The translations under genes and the position numbers were made by a program. Under the pieces are notes generated by a model. It saw only the letters and a list, made by a program, of their open reading frames with translations, ran no database searches and was not told the origin of the DNA. A DNA stretch of 62,282 nucleotides, filler included. It is 5 parts of 5 records of this genome, joined end to end, with 100 filler letters (N's around TTAATTAATTAA, not from the genome) between each part and the next. Parts side by side here need not be neighbours in the genome. Positions count along the whole stretch, not along the records: positions 53,681 to 62,282 come from SRR2962707_5387; 4 more parts are not named here. One strand, written 5' to 3'. Shown here in pieces: positions 6,607-62,282 of this stretch (within the stretch, counting starts at the first letter, position 1; the number at the start of each line of letters is the position of its first letter).

Positions 6607-7791
6607 TTACAAATCAAAATAATCAATGTATGTATTTAAATCCTTGTCGCCACGACCGGATAAACTAATTACAACAACGTCATTTTGGTTGAATTTTTTA
6701 TGATTAAATATTGCCAAGGCATGAGAACTTTCAATTGCAGGAATAATTCCTTCTGTTTTGCATAATTCTAATCCTGCTTTCATAGCATCATTATCGGTTA
6801 CAGAGAAAAATTCTCCACGACCCGAATTATACAAATGTGCATGCATTGGGCCAACACCAGGGTAATCTAATCCTGCCGAAATGGAATAAGGCTCAGTAAT
6901 TTGCCCATCGGGGGTTTGCATTAATAGGGTTTTACAGCCGTGAATAATGCCTTCTTTTCCTAAAACTGAAGTAGCAGCACTTTCCCCAGAGTCAATACCT
7001 TTTCCAGCGGCTTCTACAGCTATGATACCTACTTTTTCGTCATCTAAAAAATGATAATAAGTACCTGCAGCGTTACTTCCTCCACCTATACAAGCTACTA
7101 CATAATCGGGATTTTGGCGACCTTCTTTTTCTTGTAGCTGCCATTTTATTTCTTCGGAAATAATGCTTTGAAAGCGTGTTACCATATCTGGATATGGATG
7201 TGGACCAATAGCCGATCCAATAATGTAATGCGTATCTACTGGGTTGTTAATCCAATCTCGAATAGCCTCGTTGGTGGCGTCTTTAAGAGTGCGACTCCCA
7301 GAGAGGGCAGGGCGTACTTCGGCGCCAAGCATTTTCATTCGAGCCACATTTGGAGATTGGCGAGCAATATCAATTTCTCCCATATAAACTACACAATCTA
7401 TACCCATAAGTGCACAAACAGTAGCGGTTGCAACACCGTGTTGTCCAGCGCCTGTTTCAGCAATAATTCTTTTCTTGCCTAGCTTTTTGGCCATTAATAT
7501 TTGCCCGATGGTATTGTTTATTTTATGAGCTCCTGTATGGTTAAGGTCTTCCCTTTTTAAATAAATTTTTGCTCCATGTTTTTCAGACAATCGCTTGGCA
7601 AAATATAATGGAGAAGGGCGTCCTACATAATCTTTTAGTAATTGATTGAATTCTTCCTTGAAAGAATCTTCATTCATAATTGAAAGATATTGCTGACGTA
7701 GTTCTTCAACATTTGGATAGAGCATTTCTGGAATATATGCACCTCCAAATTCTCCATAATATCCTTTTTCGTTTACATTGTATGTGTCCAT
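6607..7791 (-). CDS. trpB: Tryptophan synthase beta subunit
   Basis: [15 protein letters not shown] (PLP lysine), [30 protein letters not shown]. Confidence 0.99.
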
Positions 7792-7883
7792 TTTTTTTAG
7801 TTGTAAAGTTGAATGTTTTAAAGTTTAAAGTAGGGAGGAAAAGAGTAGTGACTATATCTCTTTTAATTTCCTAGTCCCCAATT

Positions 7884-8576
7884 CTATTCTCTAGAAACAT
7901 TTTTATATCTCGAAATAAAATCTTTTAATTGTGCTGCGTTTTTCAATCCAGGTTCCACTTCAAATTTACTATTTACATCAATAGCATGAATTGGGAGATT
8001 AGGATTGATATGTTTTATTTTTTCAATGTGTTCTGTACCAATTCCGCCACTTAGAAAGAACGGTTTTTCTGATGGATAATTTTTTAGTACTTCCCAATTA
8101 AAGGTATATCCGTTGCCTCCAGGGAGTTTCCCTTTGGTGTCGAATAAATAATAATCGGCTATTTTTTCATACGGAGACAAGATTGAAAAATCAAATTCAT
8201 CTTTAATAGAAAACACTTTTATGATTATTGTTTTATGAGGAAGTTCTTTTTTTAGATTTTGACAAAATTCGACCGATTCATCCCCATGTAATTGAACTCC
8301 GTTTAAATGATGCTGATTAACTTTTTCAATTATATAATCAATAGTTGCGTTTACAAAAACACCTATTTTTTTGATGTTTTTTGGTAATTCTGGAATAACG
8401 TCCTCATTAAAACGTGCCGATTTTTCATAAAAAATAAACCCGAGATAATCTGGTTGTAACCCTGCAATAGTTCTGATATTATCTTCATATTTCATTCCAC
8501 ATATTTTGAGACCTATCTCAACGCTTCTATGTGGATGTTTGGGTTTGAGAGTGTTATTTGAATCCGATTTGTCCAT
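7884..8576 (-). CDS. trpF: Phosphoribosylanthranilate isomerase
   Basis: KICGM, VQLHGDE, LFDT, GGNGYTFNW, LSGGI, DVNSKFE. Confidence 0.96.
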   Translation of the reverse strand: MDKSDSNNTLKPKHPHRSVEIGLKICGMKYEDNIRTIAGLQPDYLGFIFYEKSARFNEDVIPELPKNIKKIGVFVNATIDYIIEKVNQHHLNGVQLHGDESVEFCQNLKKELPHKTIIIKVFSIKDEFDFSILSPYEKIADYYLFDTKGKLPGGNGYTFNWEVLKNYPSEKPFFLSGGIGTEHIEKIKHINPNLPIHAIDVNSKFEVEPGLKNAAQLKDFISRYKNVSRE

Positions 8577-13336: not shown

Positions 13337-13436
13337 NNNNNNNNNNNNNNNNNNNNNNNNNNNNNNNNNNNNNNNNNNNNTTAATTAATTAANNNNNNNN
13401 NNNNNNNNNNNNNNNNNNNNNNNNNNNNNNNNNNNN
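13337..13436. other. Artificial contig spacer
   Basis: 44 N + TTAATTAATTAA (stops in all six frames) + 44 N. Confidence 0.98.
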
Positions 13437-19292: not shown

Positions 19293-19392
19293 NNNNNNNN
19301 NNNNNNNNNNNNNNNNNNNNNNNNNNNNNNNNNNNNTTAATTAATTAANNNNNNNNNNNNNNNNNNNNNNNNNNNNNNNNNNNNNNNNNNNN
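19293..19392. other. Artificial contig spacer
   Basis: N44-TTAATTAATTAA-N44. Confidence 0.98.
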
Positions 19393-29407: not shown

Positions 29408-29507
29408 NNNNNNNNNNNNNNNNNNNNNNNNNNNNNNNNNNNNNNNNNNNNTTAATTAATTAANNNNNNNNNNNNNNNNNNNNNNNNNNNNNNNNNNNNN
29501 NNNNNNN
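29408..29507. other. Artificial contig spacer
   Basis: N44-TTAATTAATTAA-N44. Confidence 0.98.
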
Positions 29508-51447: not shown

Positions 51448-52755
51448 TCAGCGTTTGATGTTTGTGGTTTCTTGCAGCATCTCATCAACGGTCTGGATGA
51501 CTTTTGCGTTTGACGAATAGGCGCGCTGTGTACGGATCATTGTGGTAAGCTCTGTTGCCACATCGGTTGTGGATTCTTCTCGGGCATAGCTCTTGATGTC
51601 ACCCGTAGGTCCGTCACCCGCATCCCAAAGAAAGTATGCGCCACTTTCGGGGGAGATCATGTAAGTTTGAGCGTCCAGGGAAACGAGCCCTTCGGCGTTT
51701 GGCAAGTCGACCAATGGGATCTGATAGATCGTCTTGCGCAATCCATTGTCATACAGAACATTCACGTATCCATTCGCGTCGACTTCGACCGATGCCATAT
51801 TACCAACCGGGGACCCGTCTTTAGTAAGTGCAATCGGCGCAAAACTGTCGGAGAGTTGAGAAAGCCCGGTTCCGCTGTTGACGGCGCCGATGTTGAATTC
51901 GATCGGACCGCTGGCAGCATTGATAATCATCGCGCCGGTAACAGGGTCGTAGCCGCCACCTGATACTGTCGTGACAGAGCCAATTGTGCCCCCGGACGTG
52001 CGACTGTCGTCAAAGGTAATGACGTATTCACCGACCACTGCGCCACCTTGGGCCGAGTCTGTCAGAATCGCGGTCCATTCATTAGATGCGCCCGACGCTG
52101 GAACGGTCGGGGCGAACTCCATCGAGATACTTTTCGAGGTACCTAGGTTGTCGAAGTATTCGATCGACAGCACCTGCGACTCGCCTGAGCCGTTCGCCTC
52201 TGTCGCTGTTGCTGGCAAGTTCAGACTCATATTAACTTTGGTAGTAGGGTCGCCACTTAAGCTCAGTGCGAATTGGACCGGGCTTAGCCCGTCGTTCGTA
52301 TCGCGGGGGAAGTTTGGAACACTCCCATCCTGATTTGCGGGCCACCCGAGCAATAGAAGGCCAGTTTCGGTCGTTAGCAATCCATCTGAATCCAGCCGGA
52401 ATGAACCGGTCGTGGCAAGCATCATCTGACCGCTGCTGTCGCCGTTTGGGTCGGCCTCAAAGGCACTTTTTGTGGTGACCGGCAGAAAACCACGTCCACG
52501 CACAGCCAGATCGGTTGAGTTCGACGTGCTGATTACAGCGCCACTTTCGCTTACTAACCGGTTGGAAGAGGCACGCACACCACCTGCGGTATAGCCACTG
52601 ATGCCGTCGCTGAGCACCAATGAATTAAAGTCAGTGACGACACGCTTATAGCCATATGTGGATGAGTTCGCGATGTTGTCCGAAACGGCGGCCAAACGCG
52701 TTGCGTTGGCCTGTAATCCTGCAACCCCTGCGTTGAGCGAAGATGAAATTGTCAT
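51448..52755 (-). CDS. flgE: Flagellar hook protein FlgE
   Basis: SDNIANSSTYGYK, TDLAVRGRGF, ELTTMIRTQRAYSSNAKVIQT. Confidence 0.95.
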   Translation of the reverse strand: MTISSSLNAGVAGLQANATRLAAVSDNIANSSTYGYKRVVTDFNSLVLSDGISGYTAGGVRASSNRLVSESGAVISTSNSTDLAVRGRGFLPVTTKSAFEADPNGDSSGQMMLATTGSFRLDSDGLLTTETGLLLLGWPANQDGSVPNFPRDTNDGLSPVQFALSLSGDPTTKVNMSLNLPATATEANGSGESQVLSIEYFDNLGTSKSISMEFAPTVPASGASNEWTAILTDSAQGGAVVGEYVITFDDSRTSGGTIGSVTTVSGGGYDPVTGAMIINAASGPIEFNIGAVNSGTGLSQLSDSFAPIALTKDGSPVGNMASVEVDANGYVNVLYDNGLRKTIYQIPLVDLPNAEGLVSLDAQTYMISPESGAYFLWDAGDGPTGDIKSYAREESTTDVATELTTMIRTQRAYSSNAKVIQTVDEMLQETTNIKR

Positions 52756-52812
52756 GCGCTAGCCTTTCTGTTGTTCCAATCGATGTTGGTTCAACACATA
52801 GGCGCTTCTGAC

Positions 52813-52828
52813 TTAACGCCTGACTAAC
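52813..52828. promoter_or_regulatory. CtrA-like box upstream of flgE
   Basis: TTAA-CGCCTGA-CTAAC. Confidence 0.65.
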
Positions 52829-52856
52829 AGATAAAATACACCATAGTTCTCGGCCG

Positions 52857-53580
52857 TTATTCCCGCAGCAAAATCACCTGTAGCCGGTTGTTGCGCACAT
52901 CCATTGTGTTTTCGGTTTCTGGCTTCCTGTCTGCGTAACCTATTACTTTTTGTACCCTTTTCGGATCGTCCAGATGTTTTTCAAGCAGCTTCCGGGTTTC
53001 GGTCGCACGCCGCGACGACAGATCCCAAACAGGGTTCTCAATCGCTACAATTGGATTGGAACGGACATATCCAGCCACTGAAATGTCATTCACAACAACT
53101 TTGACCGCGTCGGCGATGACATAGAGTAGTTGTTCAAGAAGCGGAGACGCCGTATCCGTACCCGGTTTGAACAGGGTTGTGTCCTCGACGTCGAATAGCT
53201 CGATAATCATGCCTTCGTCGGTGACCTTTGTGATCACGTGGCGTTTCAGCTCGTCCATCACCATGGATTCGCCCCCACGCCCCATGAGCGTTTCATCCAC
53301 CACTTTGAAACGCTCGTTCTCGCCTTCGCTGTCTGGTCCGGCATTCGCGTCTTGGCCTTTGGCTTGGTCTTCTGATCCTGACGCGCCAGTACCGTTTTTG
53401 GGAACTGTCATTTCTGTGAAAATGCTATCACCAGACAGCGCACCGTCACCACCACCGGAAACCCGCATGATAGGGATCGAAGGGGAAAAATAATCAGCAA
53501 GCCCCTTACGTTGTTGTTCTGTTGTCGCGTTCAGCAGCCACATCAACATAAAAAAGGCCATCATCGCGGTCACGAAGTCC
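52857..53580 (-). CDS. motB: Flagellar stator protein MotB (5'-truncated)
   Basis: DFVTAMMAFFMLMWL TM helix with the conserved Asp; OmpA-like domain WDLSSRRA, RNNR. Confidence 0.95.
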
Positions 53581-53680
53581 NNNNNNNNNNNNNNNNNNNN
53601 NNNNNNNNNNNNNNNNNNNNNNNNTTAATTAATTAANNNNNNNNNNNNNNNNNNNNNNNNNNNNNNNNNNNNNNNNNNNN
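53581..53680. other. Artificial contig spacer
   Basis: N44-TTAATTAATTAA-N44. Confidence 0.98.
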
Positions 53681-53794
53681 AAAACAAAAAAAAACAAAAA
53701 AAAACAAAGAAAGTCCGTTGACGATCAGCACCGCAACAAAACCAACCAATACTGATGTGGCACGATCGCACTCTCATGCACTCCATTCACTCAC

Positions 53795-56700
53795 CGTATC
53801 GTCAACATTCCCAAGAAAACTACAGCAAAAATACCACTCCCGGAAGCACGCCGGGCACTCAGCAGCTGCAATGATAGAAAACACGCAGCCGCAAGCACTG
53901 CTAATTGAGACGTTACGGGCCAGGCAAAGTGAAACGCATCCCATGCTGCCAGCAACAATCGCTGCGATCGGCCGGGGCGCCGCAGTTCATCAAATCTGCA
54001 AGTGATGCACCGAAGCCACCAACAAGCATCAAAGTAGCATGTCGATTAGATTGATTCACCAATGCAACGTTCAAGAAAGACATCAGTAAAATAGCCGGTC
54101 GTAATCCACAGTCCAAAACTTCGCTCTCACTAGTTTCAATCCTAACCAACGCAGGCCATGTCGCAAGCATGGGCATCATTCACCCTCTCTGCAACGTAGA
54201 ACTACAAGCAGTGCGTACTTTCGTAAAATCCACGGGAGTCGTGGATCATCTATATCCTGACTCAGATTCAGGATGGGTGTTGGCGGGCCTCGAGGTTGTG
54301 GTGGCACAAAGACTGGCCACGCAGGATCAATTGCTTCTCCTGGAAGATCAAGCACGGCTGGGTTGAGGCCTTCTTCCACCATTTTCTCTTTGACCTTTCA
54401 CATTCAAATTCACCACAACATTCAGCAACACGATAAAAAGCAAAAAAAAAAATTGGAGGTGCTGTAAATGTAAAGTACAGCATGCAAAGACCACAAAATC
54501 ATCCTCACCGTCTCAGCAGGGATTCCATCGCGAAGCATTTTGAAAAAAATCTGGTAAACGTAAACATGCTTAATGCGTGGTGCGCCTGCCGGAACCATGC
54601 CTTTCTCCTGTGCCTTCATCGTTGTGGCCTGTGGCAGCACGAATTCATTACCTCACACAAGTCAAGACTGAGAACTCCAAGCCCAGCCCCATCCAAAAAT
54701 GGGTGTTCCAAAATCGATTACAACCTCGCGCCAACATCACTTGGGCACAATCGAGCATTCAAGCTACAATCTTGCAATGAAAACATTACCTGTAGCTTTG
54801 CATGCTGTTTCTGAGCTTCAGCAACCTCCTCTTCGTGCTCTTTTTTCGCGAAGGCAAGAGCTACTCGAGTAGGAGGAGGAAGTGGAAGATCAAACGTTTG
54901 ACCCGACCACTGGAGCAGAGGGCGAAGTAGATGTCGCCCTGCAGCCATCTAAAACGATTTTTGCAGAGCAGGCTCGTAAAATTTGATAAACACAGCCTCG
55001 CTTCTGAACGCAAAACTAAAGCTCATGATCAAACACAATGCCCTACCTGATGCAGGAAAGCTTGTGCGTGGCGCTGAGAACGCAACGAAGCCTGCAGTGG
55101 AGCTCCCGCATAGAGTGGGCAACATTGGAGAACAACAAACACTCCGAGCAACAAGAGCTGTAGTCCAACGAAAAGCAAGGCCATTTCCCAGCTCAGATTA
55201 AAACCAAACCCAAACACCACTCCAATTCCGATAAAGTACTGAAGATATCTGCACCAAGCAAGGCATTGCAGAGAAAATCCTTGAACAACTTTTATCCTCT
55301 TTTCGTGACGGCAGTGCGTTCAAGTAAGTTCCACGAACATGATGATCGCATCCAATGCTGCATTATTGGCCTCCGAAGCACCCTCTTTCCACATTCGCAC
55401 AAGACCAGCATCTTGTTCCCCTGGCTGGTGGAGTCGCGCCCCACGCAATGGTATGCCTTTCCTGCGAATATACATGGCAGTACCACTCGAAGGCTGGCTT
55501 GCGGTGGATTCGTCGAAAATCTCATCGGGGACCACGCTACCGTCTAAAGATCAAAAGGTCCACAATCTTAGAACAAGGAATTCCAGTAAAAACCGAGTAA
55601 TCAATGACCATGAGTATGCGAAACGAACCATGCGATTCGGCACACAAGAGATTCATTGAGTGGGTCTTGCTGGACAAGCCACCAACTGTTTGAAGATCGT
55701 GCCACTCCACATCTTGCACCAATAACGCCTGAAATATTTTCTGGCGCAGAAGACGTGTGCTATTGGCATGAAGGCGTCCAATGGTAGCCCCAACACCGAT
55801 CCATCCAAAAACGCAGACTGCTGCAACAAGCAGGAACAGCTCGAGCCCGGATGCTGTGGATGCGCTGAGACCGTTGATGCATCGGCCAAGCTCCATAACG
55901 CCATCGTCACAGTCCAGCACAGTCTCTGTTCCCACCTTTCAGAGTCAACACAATGCGGAACTTTTCAGACACTGTTCAGGAACAGATTAGCGCGCTTTAT
56001 TGGATTCGGACCACAACCTACCTTGTAGGATGAACAGCCATACAACGTAATATTTGCAAAAAATTCGACGAGAGCGATGGCGTCCCAAAAGGTGCGTGTC
56101 TGGGCAGTGATGCTGAGCCCAAGAAGTTTACAAAGGAATCAATATGCTGTCAAAACTCAATATTGATGCAGTCTTCACCGAGCAAAGCAAGCTCGCGTAT
56201 ACTCTCAGCACGTACGGAACGAAAGTGTTGACCATTTTCCCTCCACCACAGTCGCAGCACGTCATGTTCGCATACCACGGTTCCCCATAAATACGTCCTC
56301 TGCGTGGATTGAAAACCAATGTCATGGAAAAGCAATAATCCTCTACAACGTCTTCCATCAGAACGACATTACAGCACAATCACCAGCATACAGCACACGT
56401 ACGTCCAATCCAATGTGGAATTGCAATCACAGCCGTAAGATTTTCGACCCGATCCGGTCTCGAATGGCGGGCCTTTTGGGACATCTTCGATTGCACTTGT
56501 TTCTGGGTCATCGATAGCAACGAAAGTGCAGTTGTCTCCAGTAACATCACAGAATCCATCACTATCGACATCGACATGGAGGGTCTCAACAGTGAGATTG
56601 CCGGAAAATTCACCGTCATGGCACCTACAGCACAGGATTCCGAATATCCGCAGCCTCGACCAGCTCAGAAACTTGATTTGATCAATTCAGTCGGAATAAC

Positions 56701-59700
56701 ATCTATGTGTGGCGACAATACTTACCACCCTGCACTGCTGTAATTTCCACAACTATAACCAGCATGATCTAACCAGACATCTGTCGTGGACCATTCTCCA
56801 AGAGCAGACTGTGAATACCTGGGTGCCACAGTTTTGTGGGTCTCTCATGATCCAACGTTTCCTCAGTGGATTGACATGCACGTGCGCAGATATCCCACAC
56901 AGCCCATACGTACGGGTAGTCGAAGCACCTATCATGAATGGATACGTTGTGATGATCGAATTCCCCCTGCACATCGATGCCAATCGTAATATTCAAATCT
57001 ACAAAAAACGGAATCGTGACTGGGTTGCATGTTCCAAGTGTGCGGACAATATCCACGACAAGGTATCTGCGTACAGATTTTGTTGTGGTGCATGCATTTA
57101 AACAAAAATGAAACCGAAAATGTGTCACAAGTGGTAGCCACATTTTGATATCCTGCTGCACATAGATCATCGTTGCATACGTACGCATAAAGCGGATAAA
57201 CGACTCCAAGCACCACAGCTAAGAGGCCTCCTACTGCAAAATGCACAATCATCTTGGGAAAAGAAAGACAAATGAGGCGCACGACTTGAGGCCGTCCTTT
57301 TTGCTGCACGTCCGACAACTCCGTCACAGACAGTGGTTCATCACCAAACCAACTCCGGGGCTTCGGAACAACTCTACGAGCATTCATGACAGTAGTGGCT
57401 TTCGCCCGACCTGGCGTTGCTGTGGCCTCTGATGCGCGTTTGACACGCAGTTGCTCGCAAAGTGCATCCAGATCATCGGGAAACAAGTGACCGTCACCGA
57501 AGTTATTCAACTCTACTTTCGCAAGCCACGTAGAAAATGAAAGAACAGTAGGATCTGGTGTGACGCCATCCTTGAGAAGGGCGTCAAAAGTTCCATCCTG
57601 CAGAAGTCATTGCCAACACAGAAACAATTGATCCTGGGCCAGATGTGCAAGATGAGAGAAGTTGCTGTTTGAGCAGTGCGGAACAACATATTGGGCAAAC
57701 AAGGACAGAAACTCATACTTCGATGAGCTTTCCACGTTGGTCGAAAAACAATGCACGGGTGGTACAATCGCGAGCATCATCTGGGTAATCAAACCGGGCA
57801 ACAGTTGTGAACGCCAATGGAGACACAGGAACCATCGTGGAGGAAGTTTTGCCCAGTACAGATTGAAGTATCTTTTTGAACAGGGCCCGTTCTATTGTTC
57901 CGCGTGGCAACATTTGAAACGGTCTGTCCAACACAAGTAGGCTTGGAGCACCAACCAGTGCTCTTGCTAGCAGCACCTACCCAACACAAGTGTGTTAGCA
58001 ATGAGCTACTTTTGCAAAAACCACGGACACACCATCAAACAATAAGAATGGTGCAGATGCGCGCAACTAATTGTGCTCACCTGGCAACATTCAAGGTCTG
58101 ACAACCCATTCGGGCCTCGATCTTGAGGGTCAATCACCTGCTTGAAACCAGTCTTGTACTTAAGCTGAATCCGCTTTGCCAGTCTAACATCCTGACATGC
58201 GCGAAGGACATCTGCTTCGGTCACACCACGTCTGCCAAGAGTAATATTCTCTGTAACTGTACTGCGAATCAAATACCTGAAAAGTACACAGCACATGCCG
58301 AACTCACATGTTGAGCCAGGAATAGACACAAATACGAAAGCTCCACACTTTTTCAGATACGGCACCACAGACTGAACAGAGAGCAAAACGCACCTTCTGC
58401 GTCCAGCAAAAACCCCGACTTTAATACCACGTGCCAGGTGCTCTTGACCGACATAAATATTGCCCAAACTTGGTCCATCGCACTGTTTCTCCAAAACAAA
58501 CGAATTTTTACTAATGCTTCGAACTTCGATCATGGACGGCGAAGTTGGCAGTTTCGGTTCACACAAAGAAGCTTTTTCATCGACTGATGCATCATTCACA
58601 AGCGTGAAAACGCCGTCAACTGACAGCGTTACGAAGCCATCAATTATTGCAGGCGTTGCAATCGATGTATCGAGATCCGTAGTTCCAAGCTCTGGCTCTG
58701 CTGGGCGACGCATTTCTTCGCGAACACGGAAATGATGCGTCGGATACAAATTCAGCACAACGTGGAGCAGACTCTACAGTTGACAAAAAAAAACAAAAGC
58801 AAGTGCCTATGATTTCGCCTGATCATTGTTGACAAGAGCACCATCCAACAGAACTTTTGAAACTTGTACCTCTAAAGTGTCTGCACGAGGACCAGTAACA
58901 GCCACAAGCTCGCCTGGATGAATGGCGAAAGACACGTTATCCAGTTGGAGCGTGTCCTGGAGTTCATGCTCGAAGTCGTTGGAGTCTGTACGCATCGTCG
59001 CATTGTCAACCGCACTGGTCGATTTAGATGCAAGCTCACTCTGCAGTCGCAACGTCTCACAACGAGTGCATCGGATGCGGTGCTCCATAACTCGGTCACG
59101 CAAATGGTTCAGATTCCGAGTAAAGGTGACATTTTCAAAAACAATGCTTGCAGCCGGCTGTGCGGCCTGTAGGCGCTGGCCTTCTTCAGCAATGGCTTTG
59201 CGTCGAGCAGCCTCACGCTTCGACTACAAAGCAACGTCCGTTTAGCCAGGCAACAAAAAAAACCTGTGAGCGCGTTCGCAACGTTGATTGCTTTTTGAAC
59301 CCATTTTTCAGCAACACCACAAATCATTTGTCTTGACCTGTTCAGTTTCAAGCTCAATGTCCCATTTCTTCTTGTCCGTCAGCTCAATGGATGATAGGTC
59401 AGTAATCAACGATGCATCACTTCGACCAACACCAGAACCTGAAGGCGAATCACTATCGCCCGTATTGACATTGATAACTATTCTACTGTCGTAATTTGTT
59501 TTTGTTTCTGTCCATGCTTGTCCATGATGCCACCGAGTGCCTTTCAGAATATCGGAGGTTTTTGGGTCAGTTGTGTCAATGAACTTTTCAGCCTCTCCAA
59601 GAGTCTCAACAGCGTCGGGATCATCTTCGCTGTGATCACTTGGGCTTTTGGCACCAACATCCGCTTCCTTGGTATCAATTTTGTCGTCGCTGACTTCTGG

Positions 59701-61966
59701 ATTTTTGTTTGCTCTCTCACAGCTTTCCACCTCTCCTTGGATTGGTGTGTCATCATCATCATTACTGCCTGTGGTGGCTTCTGCCTGCCTTTCCTGGTCA
59801 GCTTCGGAATTTGAACTCGATTGCTGGCTTTCACCGTCCACGGTCAGTGTCGAGTCGAGATTTTGGTCGCCTGGTTGCTGCGGCTTGGTTTTCGACTTCC
59901 TTTGAGCCGCACGTCTTTGCATTTTCTTTTTATGATGAGCAATGGCAGCCTCTTTGCGCTAACGGACGAAATTCCAAACATATAATCACAAGGTGCACAA
60001 GCGCGACGCGTGGGGCCCAACGTTCAAATACAGAAACCAAAAATTTCAACATCACCAGGCAAGAAACGAGTACATGCAACACAAATGGCAGACGACCACT
60101 AGTAAATTCCAGCATCAATGGCGAACAGTCAACAAACCCGCTGTTTCAACAGAAGCTGTTCTTTCTTTTCCTGGCTGTCTACACTCTCTTCTGCAGATAT
60201 TTGTACTGGTACATACCCACCATTCACGTCCGGTGTGCGCTTGGTTAAAACTTTCAAGTAATTGGTTGTATTGTCATCCGTGTCGAAGAGCAACTCGTTA
60301 AGTTCAACCTGCAAAGATGATACAGATTGAAGCATGATCAGTGTCTAGCAGACGTTTACAATTGATTGTGGATGAGAAAGCGTTGGGCTTCATGCAACTT
60401 ACCAAACGTTGGCGCTCCCCCAAGAAAAAGCGGATCTGAGTTGAAACATAAGGAAAGTCAAACGGTCGAAAAATGAGTGTTGCGGACGCCGTCACTAGTG
60501 ATTCCCTAGTAGTATCATCAACTAAAATACACTTATCGACAACCAGAAATTGGTGATATCAGTGGTGATAAAAAGGGTGAAAACACACTTGGGCAGGAAT
60601 ATCCACAGCCGCCGATGTCCAGCTTGAAATTATAAAGAAAATCGTAACAAAAGTCCCCGCGACGTGAATGATGTTCACAGTCTGGCAAGTCAGCGATGAA
60701 AAATCACGCAATCAATCAGTTTCAAACCGTCAGGTATCAAAATCCCTGCTTACGAATTCTCCGGGAAGAAAAACGATTGTCACCCCTCGTATGGAGGCAT
60801 TGATTTCATACACTTGATACACAAACATTGTACGTACCGAATCGCTCACGACGAATGTACCAGTGAACCAACCGGTTAAACCAACCGTTGACATGACCGC
60901 TGCACCCAAAATTCCTTGAACTGATAGGTTGATTGCCCGTTGGCGAGCATCAATTTTTTGCAAGGCCGTCAGCTTTTCTTCCATATTGTGTGCCAACGTA
61001 TCTTTGCCATTTCAAACATCACCGTGTCACATCAAAGTAATGAATTGTCAACAGCCAAGGAAACACACGATGCATGACCATCATTCACAACAAGGGTAGT
61101 AAATTCCTACCTTCCATTCCAAACGCATAAATCAAGCGAATATTATGGAGTGCAGCTCGCAAGACTGCTTCCGCCTCAGCAAAACCAGCATCAAAAGACT
61201 CTTGCGCATCCACTAACATCCTTTGTGCTGTCGAAAAAGCCAGCAAGTAAACTCCTGATGCAACCACAGCTGCCAAGGCAAGCTGCCAAGCCAAAGTGAA
61301 GGCAATGATCAAAGAACCAACAATGTTGAGAGAGCTGGTCAGCAATTCGAGTCCCCCACGCACGGCAGCGTTTTTGTATCCGTGTCCGCACACGTCCATC
61401 CACGCCTCGATCCCTTTAGTTGTTTCATTGTCTAGCCAAACCATGTCAGCCCGACTTAGATGGTATATGAACGCTTTTTCGTATTTAGTTGCCACCGAAT
61501 GGCACACGTAATTCACAATGAACTGGCGCGTGAAAAAGACCACAGCCACTACAACTGCAAGGACTGTCAGAGTTGTTGCACTCAATGCCACTCTATCAAG
61601 AACATCGTCAGCATCAAGCTCATGAAGTGCATTGCAGCAGTCCCCGAGAGCCAGGAATATTATTGGAATCAAAATCCCCCTGAGCACCTCCAAGAATACT
61701 GCCAGTCCTGCCAGCCCCAGCTCAAGTGGTGAAAGTACGCGGAAGAACGTCGCGTAAAAGATCTCGAACGCTGTTCTGGGCTTCGGAACGTCGCCTCCCA
61801 CAGCCCCTTCATCAACATTATCATCAACATTATCATCATCGTTCTCGACCGTTCTGCTGTCGTCCTGACCAACAAGACTTGGTGGAGAAGCAACAAAGGC
61901 ACGTTCGCTGCCTTCGGCGCCAAAAAACCCAGTTGGATCTTTTGGAATCTTTTGATACGTTGCCAT
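53795..61966 (-). CDS. Eukaryotic multi-exon ABCB/MDR-like protein, highly divergent (TMD1-NBD1-TMD2; 3' end off contig)
   Basis: TMD1 AFTLAWQLAL...AEAVLRAALHNIRLIYAFG; NBD1 IVFENVTF, LDNVSFAIHPGELVAVTG, STVTENITLG, LARALV..PSLLVLD; TMD2 LRQKIFQALLVQDVEWHD, SWEMALL. Many GT..AG introns. Start placed at MATYQK; the full exon chain is not resolved. Confidence 0.8.
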
Positions 61967-62282
61967 AATATTTGAACGGTGTCTGTGAAAACAAAAAGCT
62001 ACAAATAAATCCGGCGTACTCGAAAGCACGACATCCCGCACCACATACAGGCAGACAACGCGGTCTAACTTGGCCTGCTGGTCATTTCTTGTCCTGTCTC
62101 AAAGAAGAAAAACAGGTGTTTTTCCCGTTGCATGCCAGAGCCTAGGGAATTGTAGAAGCGCTGACACTCGTTGAGTTGCTTCACGGCTCTAACCACTTCG
62201 ATAACTGCGGCCTCCAACCGCACACCCAACAGCCCTTGCGCGCACGCACACGCCACTCTCTAGCAAACACGTACACACGCAC

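Follow-up and report, generated by a model that had tools for sequence, protein, structure and literature searches.

An ABCB-type protein of a marine protist with a cysteine-rich domain between TM7 and TM8 and a degenerate first nucleotide-binding domain

What could an ATP-binding cassette (ABC) protein of the ABCB class do with a large cysteine-rich domain in an outer loop? Few membrane machines have been studied better than type IV ABC exporters, whose outer loops are short; we know of no other pump of the ABCB class with such an outer domain. The question is raised by a gene on the minus strand of a 62,282-nucleotide stretch of DNA (the window). A first-pass annotation, made from the letters of the sequence, had read it as an ABCB-like protein with a dead first nucleotide-binding domain (NBD1) and a cysteine-rich, glycosylated ectodomain of roughly 230 residues in the first outer loop of the second transmembrane domain (TMD2). 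Here we show that the gene, a nuclear gene of a marine protist, is expressed, intact and conserved in evolution. Its product is a full-size, heavily remodelled ABCB-type protein of more than 1851 amino acids with the order TMD1, NBD1, TMD2, NBD2. It is clearly an ABCB derivative that departs from two features of the family: NBD1 is not canonical, and 232 residues separate the seventh and eighth transmembrane helices (TM7 and TM8) where ABCB exporters have a short loop.

A spliced ABCB-type gene with an insert between TM7 and TM8

On the minus strand, joining six stretches (57066-56914, 56818-56726, 56624-56403, 56299-56216, 56112-56022 and 55935 onward) produces a single open frame, and all of the introns between these exons start with GT and end with AG. 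The junctions were compared with X2, a public run that is independent of the DNA run (X1), the probable source of this sequence, and comes from another study, with the organism label in common. X2 contains a contig of 5918 nt that is at least 99% alike to the window (2/2 records) and lacks the introns. Each of the 15 displayed joints reads CT..AC along the plus strand and so GT..AG for the gene; two more were deduced from the listed pieces of the contig. Over the ectodomain exons, the plus-strand joints of X2 are 57066>57185, 56815>56911 (+3), 56622>56724 (+2), 56299>56403, 56112>56216 and 55933>56020 (+2). Introns 57184-57067, 56913-56819, 56725-56625, 56402-56300, 56215-56113 and 56021-55936 are reproduced to the base, and the six splice junctions proposed from the letters were exact in this comparison (6/6). 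The DNA run X1 (record 3, 54544-59562) crosses the same introns unspliced. The RNA label of X2 is a guess, and we take the run as transcript-derived because of its intron-less form. As the same X2 contig also takes in the NBD1 exons on the upstream side and TMD2 on the downstream side, the ectodomain exons are retained in the transcript and belong to this gene; there was also no sign of an unexpressed pseudogene, the third outcome that the first-pass annotation had named as fatal to its reading.

The spliced frame from 59958 to 53795 encodes 1411 amino acids with zero stops, and the 22-exon model from the ATG at 61966 encodes 1851, again with zero stops. An orthologous metagenome contig of 8352 nt (L001) matches all of the window exons in order (22/22). 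Exons 61001-60838, 60681-60589 and 60344-60138 are inferred from GT..AG borders, frame, X2 bin depth and relatives, their joints not being among those displayed. In the region 61111-59958 a blind exon search was too ambiguous, with 61575 solutions, and the model there follows the ortholog and the read depth. A second X2 contig covers exon 1 without splicing. The window model closes after 53795 with a GTGAGT donor, and the X2 contig has 1265 nt beyond it; the contig end therefore truncates the gene and leaves NBD2 outside the window. The parts that place the insert are as follows.

53795..61966, minus strand: ABCB-like gene, 22 exons in the window, 1851 amino acids, 3' end lost at the contig end; model based on the X2 joints and the frame
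60589..61966, minus strand: N-terminus and TMD1 (exons 1-3); Pfam PF00664 E 7.7e-13 on exon 1, best PDB matches Ste6, ABCB4 and ABCB1
57036..57252, minus strand, across intron 57184-57067: TM7; hydropathy peak 2.30, assigned from its place before TM8
55855..57038, minus strand: coding span of the 232-residue ectodomain, formed by part of exon 57066-56914, exons 56818-56726, 56624-56403, 56299-56216 and 56112-56022, and the start of exon 55935-55629
55780..55836, minus strand: TM8; hydropathy 2.32, PF00664 profile positions 47-103, ABCB4 residues 757-816

Both membrane domains belong to the Pfam family ABC_membrane (PF00664). On the TM8 exon the match is at the cutoff (E 2.2e-6, 28.0 bits); the two membrane domains of L001 match at E 5.3e-15 and 4.2e-4. 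The PDB matches are ABCB-type only (Ste6, ABCB1, ABCB4, ABCB11, ABCB19 and MsbA), 21/21 for exon 1 and 35/35 for the TM8 exon, which together with PF00664 on both domains bears out the proposed ABCB-like identity. The exon after the insert aligns, by sequence search of the PDB, to residues 754-816 of ABCB4/ABCB1, which are TM8, and the profile start at position 47 corresponds by our estimate to the second helix of the domain. Hydropathy places one strong helix directly before the insert and another directly after it; the helix preceding TM8 lies about 250 residues upstream. The TM7 exon on its own gave no alignment to ABCB chains of the PDB and no ABC match. With TM8 aligned to ABCB4 and a hydrophobic helix ahead of the insert, the first outer loop of TMD2 was correctly named as its site. 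In TMD1, PF00664 covers the first helices in a single stretch (profile 3-199 on exon 1 residues 88-285), in keeping with a first loop of TMD1 that, by sequence, would carry no large insert; the loop-spanning profile positions are estimated.

Two further features of the gene were observed. A block of 11 residues (LGERQRLV..) at 60391-60423 (minus strand), within the inferred intron 60588-60345, is conserved against L001 1802-1834 in tblastx. It may be an alternative exon or chance, and X2 depth suggests that it lies outside the assembled transcript. The X1 run also differs from the window by single-base deletions: one at 59255 (at all depth, in an intron), and two minority variants at 54543 and 62108, one intronic and one upstream of the start codon.

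A conserved cysteine-rich ectodomain of no recognised family

The ectodomain runs from LGTCNP... to ...LSAST and has 232 residues, 14 cysteines and 8 N-x-S/T sequons, the size and content counted in the first-pass annotation. Against the rest of the 1411-residue part, both cysteines (14/232 vs. 16/1179, Fisher p 9e-5) and sequons (8/232 vs. 7/1179, Fisher p 1e-3) are enriched. The domain is strongly acidic (D+E 34 vs. K+R 9, or 9-10 across the window and L001). A two-part motif had been noted in it; both halves are present, but on separate exons about 95 residues apart, and each half occurs once, in the window and L001 only. The first-pass annotation had taken WxDxxGxxCxxY..WC..CCxCGGG for an uncharacterised module of protist secreted proteins; queries made exon by exon returned no such protein. 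The motif halves might be likened to a ShK-type domain that lacks its first and last Cys, but we do not claim that identity. The three exons concerned are the following.

56728..56817, minus strand: exon with the first motif half, W-L-D-H-A-G-Y-S-C-x-x-Y...G-W (translation); 63% identical to L001
56405..56623, minus strand: exon of 74 residues between the motif halves, with the block LHVDxDSDGxCDVTGDNCT (alignment A2)
56218..56298, minus strand: exon with the second motif half, P-W-[YF]-A-N-M-T-C-C-x-C-G-G-G-K-M-V-N (alignment A3); 73% identical to L001, the best-kept exon

As read from the sequence, removal of the 74-residue exon would give a TGA stop. Exons 57066-56914, 56818-56726, 56624-56403 and 56299-56216 have lengths that are multiples of three and share one intron phase. 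This is compatible with insertion of exons, but it is not distinctive, as 8/18 of the other exons are also multiples of three.

In L001 the ectodomain has the same intron positions and phases, and its exon lengths are equal except for a deletion of seven codons in the middle exon. Over the whole domain, 129 of the 225 aligned residues are identical (57%), which places it among the best-kept parts of the protein:

Ectodomain exons: 54, 63, 56, 73 and 50% identical to L001
TM9-10: 62% identical to L001
Last NBD1 exon: 54% identical to L001
Exon 1: 43% identical to L001
Linkers: 26-31% identical to L001

L001 keeps 14/14 of the ectodomain cysteines, 6/8 of the sequons and the acidic charge, and three blocks (WLDHAGYSC, LHVDxDSDGxCDVTGDNCT and ANMTCCxCGGGKMVN) are invariant between the window and L001. 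Judged from the two sequences, this is the conservation pattern of a folded, functional, exoplasmic domain and not of a spacer. The ectodomain would face the exoplasmic side, either at the cell surface or in a secretory or vacuolar lumen. It would sit above the outer mouth of the TMD cavity, which is formed by the TM1-2 and TM7-8 hairpins, and is probably braced by up to seven disulfides and N-glycosylated. The Asp-rich block LHVDxDSDGxCDVTGDNCT looks like a calcium-binding loop, perhaps of the thrombospondin type 3 kind; the Pfam model of that repeat (PF02412) had no match at E<=1 on the exon holding DVDSDGFCDVTGDNC. The same exon gave a weak lead only in the ESM Atlas (score 0.87; TSP_3 in 18% of the members of one cluster).

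The domain was not assigned to a known family by the other searches. The ectodomain exon pieces matched no Pfam family, either from the window or from L001, and the 74-residue middle exon had no Pfam, PDB or Atlas match. Two ectodomain pieces returned nothing usable from the ESM Atlas (best score 0.88). In sequence searches of the PDB, a 40-residue piece with the first motif half had its best hit at E 0.25 with an unrelated Tn3-like chain (6brb), and the ectodomain pieces gave nothing significant (Beaten path, E 1.7). AlphaFold2 modelling of the middle exon alone (73 residues) was unusable, with a mean predicted local distance difference test (pLDDT) score of 43. No internal repeat was detected in the ectodomain when the N-terminal and C-terminal halves were compared (z -0.4 and 0.65). 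A word-index protein search with the open reading frame (ORF) of the CCxCGGG exon yielded 19 candidates, none of which scored, in an index of proteins of up to 2000 residues (the full protein is longer). In the literature listings and abstracts, neither an ABCB-type protein with a cysteine-rich TM7-TM8 domain nor the motif is described. Separately, PWYANMTCCDCGGG (56218-56298, minus strand) is weakly like the N-terminal cysteine-rich oligomerisation segment of retinoschisin (E 2.1, not significant). An A2 profile scan of genome contigs gave Asp-rich matches of 19 and 12 residues in contigs of two bacterial metagenome-assembled genomes (L003 and L004), which were judged not to be relatives.

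The family has so far been seen in environmental and co-culture data only. An exhaustive HMMER scan with exon 1 recovered the gene's own copy on a 1.57-Mb contig of another public assembly, together with at least five further clusters (50%-identity clustering) that are 40-50% identical, all of them exon-sized ORFs. Below these come ordinary ABC proteins with 19-36% identity over the matched stretches, the 36% (P0015) over about 46 residues only. The five further clusters and the own copy on the 1.57-Mb contig indicate a real small family, and the protein is most likely a lineage-restricted ABCB derivative. Among the 68 other ABC matches of the exon 1 scan (34 of at least 1000 residues), none has the motifs or at least 10 cysteines within any span of 200 residues. 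Metagenome scans produced 91 pattern matches and no relative with exon 1 as the query, and L001 and L002 with P0077. Word-index protein searches with the TM8 exon and exon 1 gave 387 and 8000 candidates, none of which scored, a weak test on proteins of up to 2000 residues. The complete bacterial genome G001 had no match to this DNA.

Nucleotide-binding domains and remaining parts

A canonical NBD has a Walker A motif GxxGxGK[ST], a signature LSGGQ and a Walker B motif ending in Asp-Glu. NBD1 of this protein has none of them in that form, and it is set among long linkers and inserts.

57719..59223, minus strand: pseudo-NBD1 of 4 exons, with large inserts; GPRADTLES at Walker A, LSDLE at the signature, LDRP at Walker B
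59338..59958, minus strand: acidic Ser/Asp/Glu-rich linker of 207 residues, one exon, between TMD1 and NBD1 (translation)
53795..55543, minus strand: remaining TMD2, with an extra exon inserted on the cytosolic side, TM9-TM10 (55248-55047), about 200 residues of remodelled sequence and TM11 (53995-53795) (translation, hydropathy)

The Pfam family ABC_tran (PF00005) had no match at E<=1 on the four NBD1 exons. The fold can nevertheless be recognised. The Walker B region aligns to the NBD of GlcV (E 0.012) with the catalytic Glu replaced by Arg, and the exon ahead of it aligns weakly to Pgp-1 residues 504-547 (E 0.19). Walker A lacks the Gly-Lys-Ser/Thr, the Q-loop Gln is replaced by Arg, and the D-loop Asp and the H-loop His are lost. 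The description of NBD1 as dead was, if anything, an understatement, as the signature is gone too. The degenerate motifs are the same in L001, so the degeneracy is old and maintained.

NBD2 begins in L001 at 7707-8352, split by at least two introns. Its start matches PF00005 above the curated cutoff (E 8.7e-8) and has an intact P-loop (Walker A GTERSGKT), with an ENI-like block after the Q-loop.

The linker exon 59338-59958 is 26% identical to L001. The linker is probably disordered, and it stands in an odd place for a long linker in an ABCB protein. In the rest of TMD2 all exons are colinear with L001; TM9-11 are assigned by hydropathy only, and TM12 lies off the window.

The gene lies in the last piece of the window (53681-62282). 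Five contigs make up the window; the spacers between them, at 13337-13436, 19293-19392, 29408-29507 and 53581-53680, each read 44 N, TTAATTAATTAA, 44 N. Guanine-cytosine content is about 31% in the first piece and reaches about 59% in the middle; since these are joined contigs of differing composition, the adjoining pieces are not genomic context for the gene. One such unrelated piece has, at 51448-53580 (minus strand), ORFs that we take to encode a bacterial flagellar hook protein (FlgE-like, 436 residues) and a MotB-like stator protein cut by the spacer.

Exporter, receptor or organelle transporter

Full-size ABCB exporters (ABCB1/P-glycoprotein, ABCB4, Ste6 and ABCB19, of the type IV fold) have the same domain order and PF00664 TMDs and are the sole solved relatives by sequence. 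They differ from this protein in their short TM7-TM8 loop, where it has the cysteine-rich domain, and it further departs from them in its pseudo-NBD1, long linkers and loop inserts; its identity to them does not exceed 29%. The replaced catalytic Glu of NBD1 is shared with asymmetric ABC proteins (ABCB11/BSEP, TAP1/2, and ABCC proteins including CFTR and SUR), and so is the kept P-loop of NBD2, seen here in the ortholog. In asymmetric ABC proteins the NBD1 signature stays canonical and one site is fully intact, whereas NBD1 of this protein has lost its Walker A, Q-loop and signature. ABCA proteins (ABCA1, ABCA4) have a large exoplasmic domain at the same TM7-TM8 position; their second extracellular domain (ECD2) is glycosylated and disulfide-bonded and takes part in substrate hand-off. 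However, ABCA proteins differ in TMD fold and in Pfam family, their NBDs are canonical and their two ECDs are several hundred residues long, while here the family is PF00664 and one loop is expanded. An ABCA-type transporter was ruled out as the identity of this protein, PF00664 being the sole membrane family and no ABCA chain being among the PDB matches. Giant heads are found in the 'long' ABCG24/28-type half transporters, which, like the Tag proteins of Dictyostelium, are protist ABC proteins that have gained a large non-ABC domain. TagA, TagB and TagC are reported to be ABCB-type proteins fused to a protease domain (PMC3743828). In the Tag and ABCG24/28 proteins the extra domain is terminal and of known fold (subtilisin-like, beta-propeller), while here it lies inside a TMD loop; no similarity was found between those domains and the ectodomain.

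We tentatively favour an ATP-driven exporter or flippase in which one ATP site is usable and the ectodomain is an accessory on the exit side. ATP would be used at the NBD2 site only, as in other asymmetric ABC exporters, and the ectodomain would receive the exported substrate, hold it or pass it to an outside partner, possibly with calcium involved through the invariant Asp-rich block. A one-site pump is favoured because the P-loop of NBD2 is kept in the ortholog, the TMD cores are ABC-like, and a degenerate first site is normal in active pumps such as ABCB11 (PMC7544095).

Four points weigh against an exporter. First, LSDLE stands for LSGGQ in both species, and so, on sequence grounds, even the NBD2 site may be non-canonical. 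Second, large inserts, conserved against L001, lie in the cytosolic loops through which TMDs and NBDs are normally coupled. Third, the view of NBD2 is limited to its start in L001, as Walker B, signature and H-loop lie beyond the contig ends. Finally, no ectodomain relative beyond L001 was found in any library, with exon-sized queries that carry little information.

The receptor, sensor or channel regulator derived from a transporter, the view taken in the first-pass annotation, is less probable, and we regard it as somewhat unlikely. The ectodomain would then bind an outside ligand or matrix and the ABC core would only transmit or gate, as in SUR and CFTR. An NBD1 stripped in both species of Walker A, Q-loop Gln, signature, Walker B Glu, D-loop and H-loop, and with no PF00005 match, would suit such a role, as would an ectodomain that is among the most conserved parts of the protein and the large conserved inserts in cytosolic loops. 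In the ABC sandwich dimer the NBD1 signature normally completes the ATP site of NBD2, and its loss should weaken that site as well, of which CFTR G551D is an example. With the NBD1 signature lost and the coupling loops remodelled, the classical ATP sandwich may not form. Against this, NBD2 of the ortholog matches PF00005 and its P-loop is intact, the TMD cores can still be recognised as ABC_membrane, and Pfam detected no signalling domain in the 1851 residues. In addition, the ABC-derived channel and regulator known to us are ABCC proteins, which keep one canonical site.

A more radical form of this idea is doubtful, a little more so than the receptor in general. It would make the protein an ABC 'pseudo-transporter' with both composite ATP sites non-canonical, in which the cysteine-rich, calcium-binding-like ectodomain is the working part, an outside-in sensor or a matrix or ligand receptor on a pump scaffold. 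If true, this would give the ABCB-type proteins a class of function that they are not known to have.

It is clearly unlikely that the protein is an organelle transporter whose domain faces the lumen of a vacuole, a lysosome-like body or a secretory or deposition vesicle and serves mainly as a shield of glycans and disulfides or for sorting or retention. Topology predicts the exoplasmic side and not which membrane, and dense sequons (6/8 conserved) and an acidic composition fit a luminal shield, but a shield has no need for 57% identity, 14/14 cysteines and invariant blocks of 15-19 residues. Lastly, an artefact, be it a pseudogene, a misassembly or exons that belong to another gene, is very improbable: the RNA label of X2 is a guess and the joints come from one assembled contig, but 21 or more GT..AG introns are cleanly removed there, the 1851-residue frame is open, and the exon structure recurs in a second species together with conservation of the coding sequence.

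Returning to the exporter with an exit-side accessory, a conserved domain of 232 residues over the translocation exit, probably disulfide-rich and studded with glycans, is unusual. Combined with an NBD1 that has lost all of its catalytic motifs, it means that the scaffold has been rebuilt more radically than in CFTR, SUR or ABCB11. The family is small, which makes the finding a lead and not a solved function. If the ectodomain receives the substrate, the protein would represent an ABCA-like solution reached independently on another fold; a protein that senses and does not pump would put the ABCB scaffold to a new use.

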